Assembly (NCBI GenBank): GCA_964195835.1
Contig: CAXMTB010000006.1
Location: 1-44,549, forward strand
DNA from: an uncultured Nitrospinaceae bacterium
Lineage (GTDB): Bacteria; Desulfobacterota; Desulfobacteria; Desulfobacterales; UBA11574
DNA: 44,549 bases
Reading direction: 5' to 3'
The position numbers and the translations under genes are program-made. Of this stretch, positions 5,474-14,893 are shown piece by piece; position 1 is the stretch's first letter; each line of letters begins with the position of its first letter. The notes beneath the pieces are model-generated. The model had not been told where the DNA came from. It was given only the letters and a program-made list of their open reading frames with translations, and made no database searches.

Positions 5474-5482
5474 AATAAGAGG

Positions 5483-5577
5483 TTGAATAAAGGCAAACCA
5501 TCCGAAAGGGTGGGACGCAAAGCCACTGGCCTAAATCCTAAAATTAAGATCCAGAGGATATGGCGGCAGGGTTGCCT
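5483..5577 (+). ncRNA. c-di-GMP-I (GEMM-I) riboswitch
   Basis: GGCAAACCATCC-GAAA-GGGTGGGACGCAAAGCCACTGGCCTAA...ATGGCGGCAGGGTTGCC matches the GEMM-I consensus (GAAA tetraloop, CTAA/ATGG receptor). G20-equivalent at 5492, C92-equivalent at 5575. Confidence 0.93.
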
Positions 5578-5688
5578 GACTGATTTGAGCCACCCGCCTT
5601 GTATGTCAATACAACACCGCCTTATTACAAATCCTCTGTTCATCATATTATTTTTTTTGGGGAACTATTTAAATAAGGAGGAAAATCA

Positions 5689-9652: not shown

Positions 9653-9801
9653 AAGATACGGTCATAGAGTATTCGTAACACTTTAGCCTTTTGAAAACAT
9701 TGCCGCTTCAGGTATAATAGATTTTCCCAGCCTATCTTATTTTATTGGCGCTAATAAAAATTAAGGGGCGAAACTAAAGGAACAGCGATCAACTTACTTT
9801 C

Positions 9802-9830: not shown

Positions 9831-9909
9831 TTATTCGATATCTGGAACCTCGAAGCTTCTATTTTTATAGTGTTTTTCCGAAAGTTACAAGTTATATTAA
9901 TAAACGAGA

Positions 9910-10187
9910 CAGAGTAAACGCATTTGACTTCGGTCCAGCGAAGCGACGGCGTTTTTCTCTTGGAAACCGACTGACTGTTTGAAGGGCTTTAGCACGCGTT
10001 AGCCCGAGCCGAACGAAATTATGACTTAAAAAAAATCAATAGGATATTTTAGCAACGAATTGTTCTTTATAACTCTGGCACGGCTCGGACTTACGGGTGC
10101 TTAAGCACAAGTTTCAGTCGGTTGTAAAGAGATATACGCCGTCGTGGAGCGCTCTCACTGTCTTGGGATTCAAATGCGCTTACCCTG
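9910..10187. mobile_element. MITE-like element, family A copy 1 (278 bp)
   Basis: 18-bp TIRs CAGAGTAAACGCATTTGA / TCAAATGCGCTTACCCTG (16/18); flanks ATAAACGAGA (9900-9909) and TTAAACGAGG (10188-10197), 8/10 identical; second copy at 12033; no transposase. Confidence 0.8.
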
Positions 10188-10205
10188 TTAAACGAGGAGT
10201 ATCAT

Positions 10206-11063
10206 GTGAAAAATGATATTATCAACAAAGTCAAAGAGCTTTCCGTTAGAAAAAAGTTCCCCGACGGTTCTTTGTATACCAGTATCTCTATTGAACATAT
10301 AATAAATCTCTCAGATTTTTTTCAACTCAGCGGACGTCACATTGAAATTACAGCCCTTGATGAAAACATTATTCCTGAACATTATGTCCGTAACATGAAA
10401 ACATTTTCACCAAAGGATCAGTCGATTCTATTAAGTTCACGGGCAAGCATCGTCGGTCTAGGGGGACTGGGCGGTGCTGTAACTGAAATTCTCGCTCGCA
10501 TTGGAATCGGCACACTTACACTGATTGAAGCCGACACATTCGAAGAAAGTAACCTGAACCGGCAATTTTTAAGCACACATCGCCTTCTTGATACATCAAA
10601 AACCAAAGCCGCCATTAAAAGGGTCCGTGATATAAATCCGACGATTACTGTTGAGGGGCATAACGAATTGCTCGACCATAACAATGCAGCAAGCCTAACT
10701 GAAAATTCAGATGTCATTGTTGACTGCCTTGACAATATACAAACTCGATTTTTTCTGGAAAGCGCCGCAAAAAAGGTCGGATCACCTCTTGTCTCTGCTG
10801 CGGTTGCAGGAGTCTACGGGCATGTCATCAGCATCTTTCCTGAAGACAAGGGGTTAAAGCTAATATACGGTGATTCAGATATTCTACCACAGAAAGGGGT
10901 CGAGACTTCATTGGGTTGCTTACCGCATGCTGTCACACTCCTTGCAGCTCTGGAAACTTCCGAAGTTGTAAAAATACTTTTAAAAAAAGGATCTGTCTTA
11001 AAAAACAAGCTGTGTATAATAGATCTGATGGATAATATTTTTGAAGTCCTGGATTTACTTTAA
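10206..11063 (+). CDS. ThiF/MoeB/HesA-family adenylyltransferase
   Basis: VGLGGLGG, DTFEESNLNRQ, DCLDN motifs; GTG start with SD GAGGAG. Confidence 0.9.
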   Translation: MKNDIINKVKELSVRKKFPDGSLYTSISIEHIINLSDFFQLSGRHIEITALDENIIPEHYVRNMKTFSPKDQSILLSSRASIVGLGGLGGAVTEILARIGIGTLTLIEADTFEESNLNRQFLSTHRLLDTSKTKAAIKRVRDINPTITVEGHNELLDHNNAASLTENSDVIVDCLDNIQTRFFLESAAKKVGSPLVSAAVAGVYGHVISIFPEDKGLKLIYGDSDILPQKGVETSLGCLPHAVTLLAALETSEVVKILLKKGSVLKNKLCIIDLMDNIFEVLDLL

Positions 11064-11948
11064 TCCGGCAATAAACCGAATCATCTGACCGATTACCATG
11101 GAGATAATCTCTTTTGGCATAAAACCCTCAGGCATCCATTCCATAACCGTGTCTGTTATCTCCTTTGTACTCTTGTTAATATCTTTCGTTTTCGCGTAAG
11201 ATGCTTCCAGAATACTCCTGGTTTCCATGGCGGCATCCATGGATCTTTGTAAAAAATGTCTGCCGTCGCTGCCGGTCCTTGCCCCAAAGTGTTCGGTAAG
11301 ATAAACCTCGATTTCATACCGGGCCATCTTTTGAAGGCTCTCTTGGTACTTGTCAAAATTTGAATTGGCGGCTGTAAATATCTTATCCCCAAAAGGGATG
11401 CCCCCTGCATCGGAAGCAAACATCGCTTTTTCTTGGGGCACATATATTGCAATTGAACACGAAGAATGACCCGGGACCTCCATCACTTCCATTGACAGAT
11501 CATCACAACTAAGGATATCTCCATCTTTTACAACATCATCAATATTAATTCTGCCAAACTCAATCCAAATATCTTTGTCCTGTTTTACCAGTTTATGTTC
11601 AGTCAATAGTATTTGATTTAAAGATGAAATGCTTTCCATAACTTTAGGCTTATTCAAAAGTTCTTTTGCCCTTGCCGATGCCGTTATTGATACCCAGGGC
11701 CATCGCCTTTTAAAAAAAGAGACGATTCCACAATGGTCAAAATGGGAATGGAGTATGATGATCCGTTTTATCTTTTTTTCTTCTATGTTAAAGCTTTTCA
11801 GTTGTTTTATAATATCAGGAACAATGTAAGCCAATCCGCCCCCGAGCAGAGCAAATTCTTCTGCACCTTTTAAAAGATAAACACATGATTCTTTTCGTCC
11901 AAGAAATAAAATCCTGTCCGTAACGAAACCTGGTTCTTCTATAATCAT
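11055..11948 (-). CDS. Metallo-beta-lactamase-fold hydrolase
   Basis: HSHFDHCG, PGHS, ASDA, TEH motifs. Likely start ATG 11948 (MIIEEPG, SD GAGGG); the longer ORF-track start lies inside the MITE. Confidence 0.85.
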   Translation of the reverse strand: MIIEEPGFVTDRILFLGRKESCVYLLKGAEEFALLGGGLAYIVPDIIKQLKSFNIEEKKIKRIIILHSHFDHCGIVSFFKRRWPWVSITASARAKELLNKPKVMESISSLNQILLTEHKLVKQDKDIWIEFGRINIDDVVKDGDILSCDDLSMEVMEVPGHSSCSIAIYVPQEKAMFASDAGGIPFGDKIFTAANSNFDKYQESLQKMARYEIEVYLTEHFGARTGSDGRHFLQRSMDAAMETRSILEASYAKTKDINKSTKEITDTVMEWMPEGFMPKEIISMVIGQMIRFIAGLK

Positions 11949-12032
11949 CTTTCCCTCACTTGACAAAACGTCATGTTCATAGTTTATTCTGACAGGCTTA
12001 TTTAGTTTGTCAAGAATAAGGACCTTATTTGC

Positions 12033-12309
12033 CGGAACAAACACATTTGATTTCGGTGCAGCGAAGCGACGGCGTGTTTCTCTTGGAAACCGAATGACTG
12101 TTTGAAGGGCTTTAGCACGCGTTAGCCCGAACCGAATGAAATGATGACTTAAACAAACAATAGGATAATTTAGCGATTAATTAATCTAAATAACTCTGGC
12201 TCGGCTCGGGCTTACGGGTGCTAAAGCACAAGTTTCAGTCGGTTGGAAAGAGATACATGCCGTCGTGGAGCGTCCTTTTGTGTATTGGGATTCAAATGCG
12301 TTGGCCCTG
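12033..12309. mobile_element. MITE-like element, family A copy 2 (277 bp)
   Basis: Colinear with 9910-10187 in the same orientation; decayed TIRs (13/18); flanks CCTTATTTGC (12023-12032) and CCCCATTTAC (12310-12319), 7/10 with only transitions. Confidence 0.75.
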
Positions 12310-12320
12310 CCCCATTTACA

Positions 12321-13145
12321 ATGAAAAAAAACCTCAAAGAAAAAAAGAATATCTTTTCTCGAACATTTCATGTGCAAACTGCCGGCTGTCAACTCAGGGT
12401 TAAACGCATTGAACCTGAACCTGCAACACTTTTAAAGGATCGCCCCACTCTTGTTTTTCTTCATGAGGGCCTCGGCTGTATCGAGATCTGGCGGGATTTC
12501 CCGGAAACGCTCTGTGAGTCTCTCGGTTGCTCCGGGTTGGTTTACGACCGAAGAGGTTACGGCGGTTCCGAAATGTTTGAAGGCCCATGGCCGGTTGATT
12601 ATCTAGAGATTGAATCTTTAACATACTTACCTGAACTGTTAAAGGAATGCGACATAGATAATGCCGTTTTCATCGGACATAGCGATGGGGGAACCATCGC
12701 ACTAATCACCGCCGCATCTCACAGCAACCTGGTGCGCGGGATTATTACAGAAGCAGCACACATCTTTGTTGAACAAATAACCATCGAAGGTATTCGCAGT
12801 GCGGTTGAAGCTTTTGAAACCACATCTTTAAAAGAAAAGTTTTTCCGGTATCACAAAGAACATACGGAAACGATTTTCTACCGGTGGGCCAAGAGGTGGC
12901 TCTCACCTGAATTTTCCAACTGGAATATTCAAAAAGACCTTTCAAAAATAACATGTCCGGTCCTTGTTCTCCAGGGTGAAGATGATGCGTATGGAACCTC
13001 TGCCCAGGTCGAAGGTATCGCCAGCCAAGTATCCGGACCGGTGCGTGTCAAACTCATCCCTGACTGCGGCCACACGCCTCATTTTCAGGCCAAAGACACC
13101 GTCATTTCAGAAATGACGCGATTTATCAGGGAAATTTTTCTATGA
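12321..13145 (+). CDS. Alpha/beta hydrolase
   Basis: FLHEGLG, YDRRGYGGS, GHSDGG nucleophile elbow, QGEDDAYG, CGHTPH. Likely start ATG 12321; the ORF-track start at 12243 is inside the MITE. Confidence 0.88.
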   Translation: MKKNLKEKKNIFSRTFHVQTAGCQLRVKRIEPEPATLLKDRPTLVFLHEGLGCIEIWRDFPETLCESLGCSGLVYDRRGYGGSEMFEGPWPVDYLEIESLTYLPELLKECDIDNAVFIGHSDGGTIALITAASHSNLVRGIITEAAHIFVEQITIEGIRSAVEAFETTSLKEKFFRYHKEHTETIFYRWAKRWLSPEFSNWNIQKDLSKITCPVLVLQGEDDAYGTSAQVEGIASQVSGPVRVKLIPDCGHTPHFQAKDTVISEMTRFIREIFL

Positions 13146-14535
13146 TGGCCTTTGCAGGTATCAGCCCGGTAGCGCCGGCTGATACAATATTTCCAGCCAC
13201 ACCCGGTCCGTCCCCGGCGACGTACATCCCAGGAATCTTTGTTTCCAGCTCGCTGGTTGTATCAACCTGTGTAGCAAAAAACTTAATCTCAGGTGCGTAA
13301 AGGAGTGTTTCGTCATTGGACACTCCTGGAACAACGCGGTTAAGTTTATCCAAACCTTCAATAATGTTGGTTAAAATTCTCTCTGGCAAGGCCATGGCAA
13401 TATCACCACAGACCACACCGGTCAGTGTCGGCTCGATGTAGCCTTTTTTGACTCGATGCCATGTGCTGCGCCTTCCGCGCTTGAGATCACCAAAGCGCTG
13501 CAGTATGGGTTTGCCCCCGCCAATCAAAGTGGCGAGGTTCCCAATGGATTCACCGTATGCTTGATTGTCTGTTACGGGTTCGGTGAGGATCACCTTGGAC
13601 AAAAATGCGAAGTTGGTATTCTCAGATTTCTTGTGCTGATATGAATGGCCGTTGACGCAGACAAAGTTAGTGTAATTTTCTAAAGAAACAAACCCGCCTT
13701 TATTGGTACAAAATGTCCGGGTCTGATCATCATATTTTGATGTCTGTATAAAAAAAGTGGGGTCATAAATTACATCACAAAGATCTTGCATGATATCTTT
13801 GTGAACCTCAACACGTATGCCAACTTCAATGCCTCTTTGCTTGAGTCCGATCCCGTATTTTTGTGCCAGTTTTCCAACCCAGTCAGCCCCAACACGTCCG
13901 GGTGCCAGGATAATGTTGTTGGAAAGGTATTTTTTTCTGCTGGTCACCACACCTTTTACTCGTCCATTTTCCACAATGATGTCCTTTACTTCCTCAGACG
14001 TGTGCAAGGTCACCCCTTTGGACTTGATGTAATCAGTCATATTTGAAATATATCCGGGCAAGCATTCGCTGCCAAGATGTTTCTGTTTGATAATAAGCAG
14101 ATCAATTCCATACCGCTTGGCCCTTTTACGGATGTTTTTAGCTTCTTCCATATCCGTCGGATAGACCATGCTATCCATGCCGAATCTGTTGAATATCTGT
14201 TCTGTCTCATCAATAAGCACCTGGGCCTGGCGTATCGACATAAACTGTGTTAGATCGGTCTTTCCTAATTTGTGGATAAAGTTTAGCTTACCGTCTGAAA
14301 ATAGACCTGCCCCACCGACACCGCACAAAATATTACACGGTCGACATTTCATGCATTTCTTATTCTTACTCATCGGGCATCTGCGCTTTAAAGGACCTTT
14401 CCCTTTTTCAACAATAAGAACATTGAGATTGGAGTGTTCACAAAGATAAAACGCTGCAAATAGTCCGGCAGGACCACCCCCGACAATAATGACATCATAT
14501 TTATTGCTCTTTAATGTTGTTTTGGACGCGGACAT
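13126..14535 (-). CDS. Uncharacterised NAD(P)/FAD-dependent oxidoreductase (COG2509-like)
   Basis: VGGGPAG, Cys-rich CP..CMKCRPCNILCGVGGAGLFSDGKLN, RTFCTN, VNGHS, YAPEIKF, AGDGPG. Confidence 0.85.
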   Translation of the reverse strand: MSASKTTLKSNKYDVIIVGGGPAGLFAAFYLCEHSNLNVLIVEKGKGPLKRRCPMSKNKKCMKCRPCNILCGVGGAGLFSDGKLNFIHKLGKTDLTQFMSIRQAQVLIDETEQIFNRFGMDSMVYPTDMEEAKNIRKRAKRYGIDLLIIKQKHLGSECLPGYISNMTDYIKSKGVTLHTSEEVKDIIVENGRVKGVVTSRKKYLSNNIILAPGRVGADWVGKLAQKYGIGLKQRGIEVGIRVEVHKDIMQDLCDVIYDPTFFIQTSKYDDQTRTFCTNKGGFVSLENYTNFVCVNGHSYQHKKSENTNFAFLSKVILTEPVTDNQAYGESIGNLATLIGGGKPILQRFGDLKRGRRSTWHRVKKGYIEPTLTGVVCGDIAMALPERILTNIIEGLDKLNRVVPGVSNDETLLYAPEIKFFATQVDTTSELETKIPGMYVAGDGPGVAGNIVSAGATGLIPAKAIIEKFP

Positions 14536-14570
14536 ATTGTTCTCCTATTATCAAAAGTTTCCTATTATCT

Positions 14571-14858
14571 TATAGCAAATGTCATAAATATGTTCCGATT
14601 GAATCGCTTCCTGCAACAATTTGACTTAAGCCGCCGGATGATTTCGTTTAGGTCGGGAAGCTGTCTAAGCAAATTAGAACGCGTTAAAGAGAACATCCTT
14701 GAAGTGTTTCATATTAGATAATAAAATCAATCTATTGCACTATATTGTAAAAAACCGTAGCCTTGTTCTCTTTTACGCGTTTTTATTTGCGAGTTCTTGC
14801 CAACCTAAACGAAATTATCCGGCGACGGAAACGGAACGTTATTTTGAAAATAACTATA
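14571..14858. mobile_element. Long palindromic MITE-like element, family B (~288 bp)
   Basis: Imperfect terminal IR 14571-14597/14832-14858 (19/27); stem 14630-14660/14796-14826 (27/31); stem 14669-14695/14764-14790 (24/27); 68-nt AT-rich loop. Single copy in the window, so mobility is inferred. Confidence 0.6.
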
Positions 14859-14893
14859 TATTTTACTTGAGCGTAAACAAAATGTCGACAAAT

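Follow-up and report, generated by a model that had tools for sequence, protein, structure and literature searches.

A hairpin core of constant size and shape carried by several kinds of miniature transposon in Desulfobacterales

The stretch of DNA analysed here (the window) comprises 44,549 nt of contig CAXMTB010000006.1 (assembly GCA_964195835.1). It contains three small non-coding inserts, A1, A2 and B, of 276-305 nt, each carrying a hairpin core of 197-201 nt, together with a core-less remnant of a fourth element. Their coordinates are collected in Table 1, where the scores in bits refer to the covariance model R1, built from the A and B cores. Rfam, at gathering scores, recognises only c-di-GMP-I in the window (5482-5579); the A1, A2 and B elements themselves give no match at gathering scores and none at E values up to 5.

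Table 1. Elements and hairpin cores in the window
Feature	Position	Strand	Core length	Remarks
Fourth element, core-less remnant	9672..9786	-		GTAAC...TTTAG-type end plus first bases of outer stem
Element A1	9910..10187	+		CAGAG.../...CCCTG inverted ends enclosing core; both ends located
Core of A1	9944..10144	+	201 nt	Outer stem, asymmetric loop, inner stem with two T·T mismatches, apical loop; R1 197.4 bits on +, 74.4 on -
Element A2	12023..12309	+		Right end placed at 12309; left end degenerate
Core of A2	12067..12265	+	199 nt	R1 194 bits on +, 70.6 on -
Element B	14562..14866 (limits approximate)	+		Shell of TATAGC.../...TTTTAC kind; ends from family consensus, related shells compared
Core of B	14630..14826	+	197 nt	R1 181.1 bits on +, 82.7 on -

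A1 and A2 are 87% identical. The 10-mers that flank A1 (9900-9909 and 10188-10197) match at 8/10 positions and those that flank A2 (12013-12022 and 12310-12319) at 7/10, and contigs from relatives connect 12015 to 12310 and 12017 to 12314, with A2 absent. A preliminary description of this DNA had delimited B by its core; the core stands, but the element is longer, with inverted ends (detected at 14570 and 14859 when up to six mismatches are allowed) that extend to the approximate limits in the table. No clean target duplication was seen at the window copy of B. The B shell is found without its core at the same locus, since one relative's contig connects 14634 to 14826, omitting 191 nt between 4-nt direct repeats. 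The end piece of the fourth element matches its own genome 41 times, and one relative's contig connects 9660 to 9787. Elements of this kind are short and non-coding, have inverted ends and target duplications, and are multicopy, being present or absent at a given site in different relatives. A1, A2 and B are copies of small non-autonomous transposable elements (MITEs), and these elements are mobile.

The preliminary description had A and B sharing one layout, and all four of its parts are found in the sequence, with some changes of dimension. The outer stem, put at 31 bp, has that length in A1 (9944-9974/10114-10144; 31 nt, 84% complementary) but is shorter in B (14632-14660/14796-14824; 29 nt, 90% complementary). 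The asymmetric internal loop is present in both, with CTGTTTGA at 9975-9982 opposite AAGTT at 10109-10113 in A1 and CTGTCTAA at 14661-14668 opposite GAGTT at 14791-14795 in B. The inner stem is 27 nt and 89% complementary (12109-12135/12201-12227 in A2 and 14669-14695/14764-14790 in B), but it contains two T·T mismatches and not one, in TTAG opposite CTTA (TTTA in B) and in GTTA opposite TTAC. The apical loops of A1, A2 and B are indeed similar in size, although the range is 65-69 nt instead of 67-69 nt and varies with the placement of the last pair.

The same arrangement recurs in the larger collection of cores described below: a variable outer stem of about 31 bp leads to an asymmetric loop, where the 5' arm reads CTGTYTGA and the 3' arm RAGTT, then to an inner stem of about 28 bp in which the two T·T mismatches lie about one helical turn apart, and finally to the apical loop, 63-76 nt long. 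A conserved context flanks the outer stem at its base, RAG before and CGR after. A K-turn was considered for the internal loop and rejected, since it would have a 5-nt bulge and family A, judged by eye, lacks one G of the tandem G·A; the loop and shell were likewise considered and rejected as sigma-54 or sigma-70 promoters, there being no conservation between families. Judged by eye, the inner stem of A also resembles A's own right end at about 11/14 bases, a likeness that may give rise to short A copies ending there.

The claim that A and B are distinct in sequence holds for the full elements, whose likeness is not significant (z 1.9; 14/300 shuffles), but not entirely for the cores, which show a weak full-length likeness on global alignment (z 5.1; 0/500 shuffles). 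A pattern with fixed motif letters gathered 172 distinct cores of 194-208 nt; at 80% identity they fall into 60 clusters. Because the pattern fixes these letters, the invariance of the motifs within this set is partly circular. CTGTYTGA is present in 28, and TTAG in 27, of 30 matches found by the covariance model, itself derived from A and B.

R1 has full-length matches in 44 of the 151 genomes searched within the order to which the window's own genome belongs, spread over 30 of its 110 genera, and in none of 146 genomes from other orders of the phylum. Within the family, a two-part motif is found in 44 of 52 genomes, giving about 460 matches where the reversed control gives 2, and the genome to which the window belongs has at least 29 cores, both window A copies included. 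In a pattern scan, all 80 record titles among the matches listed were those of Desulfobacterales-type MAGs. The core is thus confined to the order named Desulfobacterales in record titles, and it is spread across that order. A plasmid collection searched with A1 and B gave no match. The view that the core belongs to no named family agrees with the Rfam result and with a literature search, made without full texts, that gave no relevant description.

The folding is far stronger than chance would give. A1 folds at -113.9 kcal/mol (z -7.7) and B at -82.1 kcal/mol (z -9.0), with 0/200 shuffles as low in each case. An RNAalifold consensus of 12 A and 13 B cores has 45 pairs, of which 31 show two-sided changes. 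Among the 60 cluster representatives, 84.9% of positions in register are standard pairs, compared with 39-45% when the partner is slid and 55.5% when arms are swapped between clusters, and compensatory pair types occur at 31/31 positions of the outer stem and 20/28 of the inner stem. The proposal that pairing is kept whilst stem sequence is free is therefore upheld by strong covariation, but the outer stem is partly constrained in sequence, with G at -25 in 48 of 59 representatives.

The mismatches within the stems are asymmetric between the strands. In the 172 cores, G·T and T·G outnumber A·C and C·A by 357:68 among outer-stem positions and by 191:57 among inner-stem ones; in the 60 representatives the counts are 206:45, with more G·T in 51 clusters, fewer in 5 and equal numbers in 4, although the copies are kin, so that these counts and those of the pairs overstate independence. 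This excess of G·T over A·C indicates that one strand has been selected to fold, either as RNA or as single-stranded DNA. Only the strand whose 5' arm contains CTGTYTGA is under selection for pairing. The covariation, and the further matches with the same motifs and spacing, support the suggestion that the module is under structural selection. Of the three outcomes that the preliminary description named as refuting it, none was observed.

That different MITE shells carry the module is also borne out, since at least seven shell kinds are found, with differing inverted ends and target duplications. The duplication is 10 bp for the A shell, 8 bp for four kinds (GTA...TTTAG and three more) and 5-6 bp for a sixth, and a seventh kind has TA flanks. 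As the ends and duplication lengths differ, the shells must use different transposases. An automatic caller found end-plus-duplication pairs in 60 of the 161 instances with full flanks, and each core cluster with calls has a single shell type, two evidently spurious calls aside. In at least seven shell kinds the core lies at the exact centre.

Because the hairpin is present inside several unrelated miniature transposons, it seems to be under selection for its own sake. The explanation favoured here, at a little less than an even chance, is that it is a portable module that hitch-hikes in miniature transposons and is recognised as a folded single strand. The maintenance of pairing on one strand only suggests that the module would function in this folded form, with CTGTYTGA in the 5' arm. 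It may have been acquired by the seven or more shell kinds and have spread along with them. We infer for it the role of a selfish cis-acting module, in which one conserved partner protein would read the loop and the T·T sites, probably on a single-stranded DNA form that we suspect to be exposed during replication or transposition, and the benefit would be to favour the spread or retention of the carrier shell. In one genome, however, there are 388 end-motif matches and only 48 core motifs, so that shell-only copies are far in excess, and these copies bear diagnostic bases of their own. The shell can therefore probably move without the core, which makes a need for the core in cis less convincing.

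An alternative that must be judged unlikely is that the core is a gene for a structured ncRNA acting in trans on some process of the host or the transposon, with the shells as its vehicles and expression coming from read-through or a weak promoter. Such an RNA, absent from Rfam and hence new, would fit the roughly five-fold greater tolerance of G·T (G·U) than of A·C, the constancy of size and rod shape over 60 clusters, and the presence of U·U mismatches and a purine-rich internal loop, which are frequent in RNA. However, no conserved promoter-like site was found upstream of the cores; a promoter scan of the window gave 14 promoter-like sites, compared with 10.7 ± 2.9 in shuffles, and none is alike at the three elements. 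RNA-library contigs from four runs cover the whole stretch evenly, in all 30 bins and on both gene strands, and so cannot reveal a transcript. The raised summed depth over the elements in these contigs reflects many copies in many organisms.

Orientation to genes also weighs against an expressed RNA. Of 175 instances, 163 are intergenic (no overlap with a long ORF); the core runs with the upstream gene in 63 cases and against it in 82, the figures for the downstream gene being 70 and 80, and there is no bias even between co-directional neighbours (35 same, 44 opposite). With its orientation to neighbouring genes random, the core is not a host cis-regulator. Furthermore, an RNA acting in trans need not persist in every proliferating family. 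A point against the favoured explanation is that any bias towards one replication strand is weak: flank GC skew at the cores, when pooled, is positive at 46 and negative at 59 (p 0.016). All of the first seven cores along one complete genome (0-2.6 Mb) lie on its minus strand, but the GC skew of twenty 20-kb samples there is too weak for locating the origin or terminus.

The favoured explanation is further weakened in that no partner protein was found. The preliminary description also raised the possibility of genes enriched beside the matches. None is recurrent among 482 neighbouring ORFs, the largest cluster (11 ORFs at 8 loci) being unlike a transposase, and no gene lies within the apical loop at any of 246 left motifs (183 complete, 63 solo). 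Transposases of the IS66, IS256 and ISL3 families are absent from the copy-rich genomes (five genomes per family examined). ISAs1-type genes in two of five A-carrying genomes have CAGGG-like ends, but not A's repeat. No longer element bounded by A or B ends was found in the window's own genome, nor was an autonomous insertion sequence with ends matching the element found there or in five genomes per family. Y1_Tnp transposases occur in 136 of the 151 genomes of the order, but they are present whether or not the genome carries the element (41/44 carriers, 95/107 others) and so are not linked to it.

The Y1 genes bear on a second and less probable alternative, for which the likelihood is low: that the core is itself a mobile hairpin, moving as single-stranded DNA in the manner of REPINs with RAYT or of IS200/IS605-derived elements and landing in the apical loops of other hairpins. 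Landing there would explain why the core sits mid-way in unrelated MITEs and is exactly central in at least seven shell kinds. Strand-specific folding, the conserved RAG and CGR at the stem base and the near-universal Y1 genes are consistent with such movement, as is the occurrence of filled and core-less shells at the same locus, joined across short direct repeats (4 nt for B; about 5 nt in another genome). However, core clusters keep to a single shell type each, so independent moves of the core must be rare, clear solo cores outside a shell are not established, and the Y1 genes lack a link to the element. The breakpoints of core-less copies also vary, as hairpin deletion would give: short copies in another genome have four junction forms among 7, and the window's own genome has four different core deletions. 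Shells lacking the inner arm, as sought on the strength of the preliminary description, thus exist as core-less copies, but they look like hairpin deletions and not like vacant shells awaiting an insert.

Least probable of all, and a poor prospect, is a hairpin with no function of its own, in which the MITEs are palindromic by origin, quasi-palindromes are corrected at the DNA level and the conserved words are double-stranded transposase sites: long palindromic MITEs are common in bacteria and hairpin deletions are frequent here, as unselected palindromes would show, but this account is strained because symmetric correction cannot yield 206 G·T against 45 A·C, and against it also are the two T·T sites, a fixed difference between the arms, the recurrence of the same words in shells whose different ends and duplication lengths imply different transposases, and a core length that stays at 194-208 nt over 60 clusters.

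These elements reverse the usual organisation of bacterial MITEs, in which conserved, functional ends normally enclose an interior of filler. What stays constant in them is the interior hairpin, in size, shape, two mismatches and one loop over 60 clusters, in shells that must use different transposases. If a reader protein exists, it would give Desulfobacterales a novel system of protein-nucleic acid recognition and add a new layer of hitch-hiking among mobile elements; if the active form is RNA, it would represent a widespread RNA class, unlisted so far. The broader proposition, that the cores are portable structured nucleic-acid modules of a new class, with a dedicated reader protein, which act as a single-stranded DNA recombination or transposition site or as an ncRNA and have colonised seven or more unrelated transposon backbones and persisted throughout the order, is more doubtful, though worth stating. 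If true, the module would be a parasite or symbiont of transposons, belonging to no single one. The covariance model flags tens of repeats per genome, and the core repeats break metagenome-genome assemblies and may be mistaken for regulatory hairpins.

The nearest known systems share some of these features. Bacterial palindromic MITEs, namely ERIC, Correia/NEMIS, RUP and Nezha, are likewise small, non-coding, multicopy and intergenic, with inverted ends, target duplications and one long hairpin present in both orientations. In the present elements, by contrast, it is the interior and not the ends that is conserved, one and the same interior is combined with ends of at least seven kinds, the mismatches and loop are conserved order-wide, wobble pairs are strand-specific, and a matching autonomous insertion sequence was not found in the genomes searched. 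Like the core, REPINs are hairpin repeats with tens of copies per genome, confined to a lineage, with several families per genome, compensatory stem changes and an active form presumed to be single-stranded. However, REPINs are about 70-110 nt, lack a target duplication and flank a single-copy RAYT gene, whereas the present elements have duplications of 2-10 bp, no recurrent neighbour gene and no Y1 link; membership of the REPIN/RAYT system was rejected because there is no co-occurring cognate Y1 and duplications of 8 and 10 bp lie at the outer ends. IS200/IS605-derived PATE elements have a separate subterminal hairpin at each end, with neither inverted ends nor a duplication, and were rejected since the present elements form a single end-to-end hairpin with both. 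Integron attC sites are 57-141 bp, with RYYYAAC followed by GTTRRRY as core sites, and lie in cassette arrays beside an integrase. The present core is about 200 nt, its 5' arm containing GTTA and its 3' arm TTAC, and its copies are scattered; the differing motif order and length, and the genes on both strands between copies, led to rejection of attC membership. The likeness to attC is one of principle: structure is conserved beyond sequence, a folded single strand is, or for the core would be, recognised, and fixed unpaired bases mark the active strand.

The three long hairpins that the preliminary description placed within 9944-14826 lie exactly where it put them, as judged by a repeat finder and by motif reading. 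A1 and A2 are 87-92% identical, and the single-strand folds of A1 (-113.9 kcal/mol, z -7.7) and B (-82.1 kcal/mol, z -9.0) were each reached by none of 200 shuffles. Since every TTA-over-TTA site leaves a T.T mismatch, there are two per core, spaced about one helical turn apart; the mismatch described earlier is present, but its count was given as one.

Coordinates of the elements and their hairpin parts in the window
Feature	Position	Length	Complementarity	Remark
A1	9910 to 10187			inverted ends: CAGAG start, CCCTG finish
A1 outer arms	9944-9974/10114-10144	31 nt	84%	repeat finder
A1 internal loop	9975-9982/10109-10113			CTGTTTGA facing AAGTT
A1 inner stem, first site	9989-9992/10100-10103			TTAG facing CTTA
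A1 inner stem, second site	9998-10001/10091-10094			GTTA facing TTAC
A2	12023 to 12309			flank agreement 7 of 10 positions
A2 inner arms	12109-12135/12201-12227	27 nt	89%	repeat finder
B outer arms	14632-14660/14796-14824	29 nt	90%	repeat finder
B internal loop	14661-14668/14791-14795			words as in A1
B inner arms	14669-14695/14764-14790	27 nt	89%	repeat finder
B inner stem, first site	14674-14677/14782-14785			words as in A1
B inner stem, second site	14683-14686/14773-14776			words as in A1

A1, A2 and B are mobile inserts. The ten-base stretches flanking A1 agree at eight of ten positions, family A copies in other genomes are bounded by clean 10-bp duplications, and A2 is absent from the same site in relatives, whose contigs from public runs connect 12015 with 12310 and 12017 with 12314. 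The limits first proposed for B were too short, its inverted ends lying near 14562-14600 and 14830-14866. Directly upstream of A1, at 9672-9786, a fourth element survives as a remnant that lacks the core and consists of a GTAAC...TTTAG-type end and the initial bases of an outer stem; the end piece matches the source genome at 41 places, and in one relative's contig 9660 is joined to 9787. The window also holds a c-di-GMP-I riboswitch aptamer (5482-5579, + strand; scoring 81 bits where the gathering score is 35, and matched over the full length, 1-87), and relatives' contigs lack nine bases at 12436, an in-frame length difference inside the frame 12315-13145.

As full elements, A and B show no significant likeness (global alignment z 1.9); their cores (consensus 199 and 196 nt) are alike (z 5.1, a score reached by none of 500 shuffles). 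When 12 A and 13 B cores are aligned, the arms are almost gap-free and the consensus fold comprises 45 pairs, of which 31 persist through two-sided changes. The search of the source genome and its relatives suggested earlier, using a covariance model built from these 25 cores, found further cores across the order: matches were full-length (193-209 nt, G+C 0.28 to 0.65) and came from 44 of the 151 genomes sampled within the order (30 of 110 genera; among high-quality genomes, 28 of 113), with none in 146 genomes from other orders of the phylum. A two-part motif is present in 44 of 52 same-family genomes, with about 460 matches where the reversed control gave 2. A stricter pattern, with one genome per species, gave at least 119 stretches, and all 80 titles among the matches listed were Desulfobacterales-type metagenome genomes. 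The source genome (649 contigs, 3.79 Mb) carries at least 29 cores in at least five sequence clusters, the window's two A copies included, as well as internally deleted copies with four different breakpoints. Beside A and B it has at least three more core families, at contig positions such as C4:28436, C13:4457, C8:26229, C9:11621 and C120:8783-8989; a CTTCAGG-type core is present in about 15 copies, in GTA...TTTAG shells, and five core copies lie in GAGGGGTCGG shells.

All fetched DNA yielded 172 distinct cores (194-208 nt) in 60 clusters at 80% identity, and across these clusters pairing is indeed kept while stem sequence changes. In register, standard pairs account for 84.9% of arm positions among the 60 representatives; sliding the partner by 1-3 bases lowers this to 39-45%, and exchanging arms between clusters to 55.5%. 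Compensatory pair types, scored only when two or more clusters show them, are found at 31 of 31 outer-stem and 20 of 28 inner-stem positions. Mismatches are asymmetric: G.T plus T.G outnumber A.C plus C.A by 357:68 in the outer stem and 191:57 in the inner stem of all 172 cores, and by 206:45 in the representatives (51 clusters with more G.T, 5 with fewer, 4 equal), although copies are related and neither these nor the pairing counts are independent events. A palindrome kept solely as double-stranded DNA should show equal numbers, because the elements occur in both orientations; the folding strand is therefore the one with CTGTYTGA in its 5' arm. The core structure is under selection on one strand, and that strand folds as RNA or as single-stranded DNA. 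Motif invariance within the 172 is partly circular, the search pattern having fixed motif letters. Thirty hits found by the model only, itself derived from A and B, carry CTGTYTGA in 28, TTAG in 27, RAGTT in 26 and a 3'-arm TTAC or TTAG in 26.

That different MITE shells carry the module, as had been proposed, is borne out by the flanks of copies from many genomes, in which inverted ends of at least seven kinds enclose the same kind of core.

Inverted ends found around cores
Shell	Ends	Target duplication
A	CAGGG...	10 bp
B-like, widespread, including relatives of window B	GTA..A.TTTAG...	8 bp
Second family, one complete genome	ATTCTAC...	flanking TA on both sides in 3 of the 4 copies that could be read at both ends
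D	GAGGGGTCGG...	8 bp
E	GCGGTTATGC...	8, perhaps 9 bp
F	GGCTCCTCGC...	8 bp
G	CAGAAATTTA...	5-6 bp

Of 161 instances with complete flanking sequence, 60 gave an inverted end paired with a duplication in automatic calling, and every core cluster with calls had a single kind of end, apart from two evidently spurious calls. Because duplication lengths differ, the transposases must also differ, and thus the core was combined on several occasions with unrelated backbones, each of which later carried it further. The context immediately outside the outer stem is also biased, RAG preceding and CGR following.

Shells also occur without cores. In one complete genome the shell-end motif has 388 matches (control 17) and the core motif 48 (control 0), and seven short copies of about 76 nt show four junction forms, with private bases in their ends. 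Near the window's elements, one relative's contig keeps the B shell but lacks 191 nt of core, the gap lying between 4-nt direct repeats; in another contig, 199 nt of an A core are missing. Breakpoints as varied as these are consistent with recurrent loss of an unstable hairpin, and the private bases suggest that shells may also move alone. Short A copies elsewhere (loci L036, L039, L047) stop just past the inner GCGTTA word, at a CCCTG end, as if recombination had taken place between the mutually similar inner stem and right end of A, or as if these had provided an alternative end.

The elements are mobile, and their cores are confined to one order and conserved in dimensions; the cores covary, show strand-specific wobble, keep fixed mismatches and a fixed loop, and sit in several unrelated shells. 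We infer that the hairpin is a module selected for its own sake, which one conserved, putative protein would recognise in its folded single-stranded form and which may spread by hitch-hiking within miniature transposons. The main weakness of this reading is that shells are apparently mobile without the core, so its benefit to the carrier is only putative. Trans-acting RNA, with which the strand asymmetry also agrees, keeps real weight. Instances are intergenic in 163 of 175 cases and random in orientation to their neighbours (upstream 63 same, 82 opposite; downstream 70 and 80), which makes it unlikely that the module plays a set part in neighbouring messages; no promoter-like site common to the three elements, no recurrent gene beside them and no gene inside a split core was found. 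As neither promoter nor orientation signal favours RNA, we lean towards single-stranded DNA as the active form. An independently mobile hairpin nesting inside other hairpins also keeps real weight. An unselected palindrome carries real weight too, and is the hardest of these to reconcile with the strand asymmetry.

Searches for partner enzymes found no IS66, IS256 or ISL3 genes in the copy-rich genomes examined. ISAs1-type genes occur in two of five A carriers (loci L225 on contig G036:C286 and L226 on G091:C302; 439 and 434 aa), with ends starting CAGGG(G/T) that match the first bases of A's ends and no further. Y1 transposase genes are present in 136 of 151 genomes of the order regardless of the element; the usual ones have 130-170 aa, and many genomes also have frames of about 320-340 aa with weak Y1_Tnp matches (E near 1e-16). 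A plasmid collection gave no match, nor did Rfam match the elements, whether at gathering scores or with E values as high as 5, in keeping with the earlier failure to recognise a named family. Length, motif order and setting rule out an attC site. The elements are of a known kind, bacterial hairpin MITEs. What appears to be new, since literature searches turned up no account of such elements, is a conserved interior common to shells of different transposase types, with a strand marking like that of attC.
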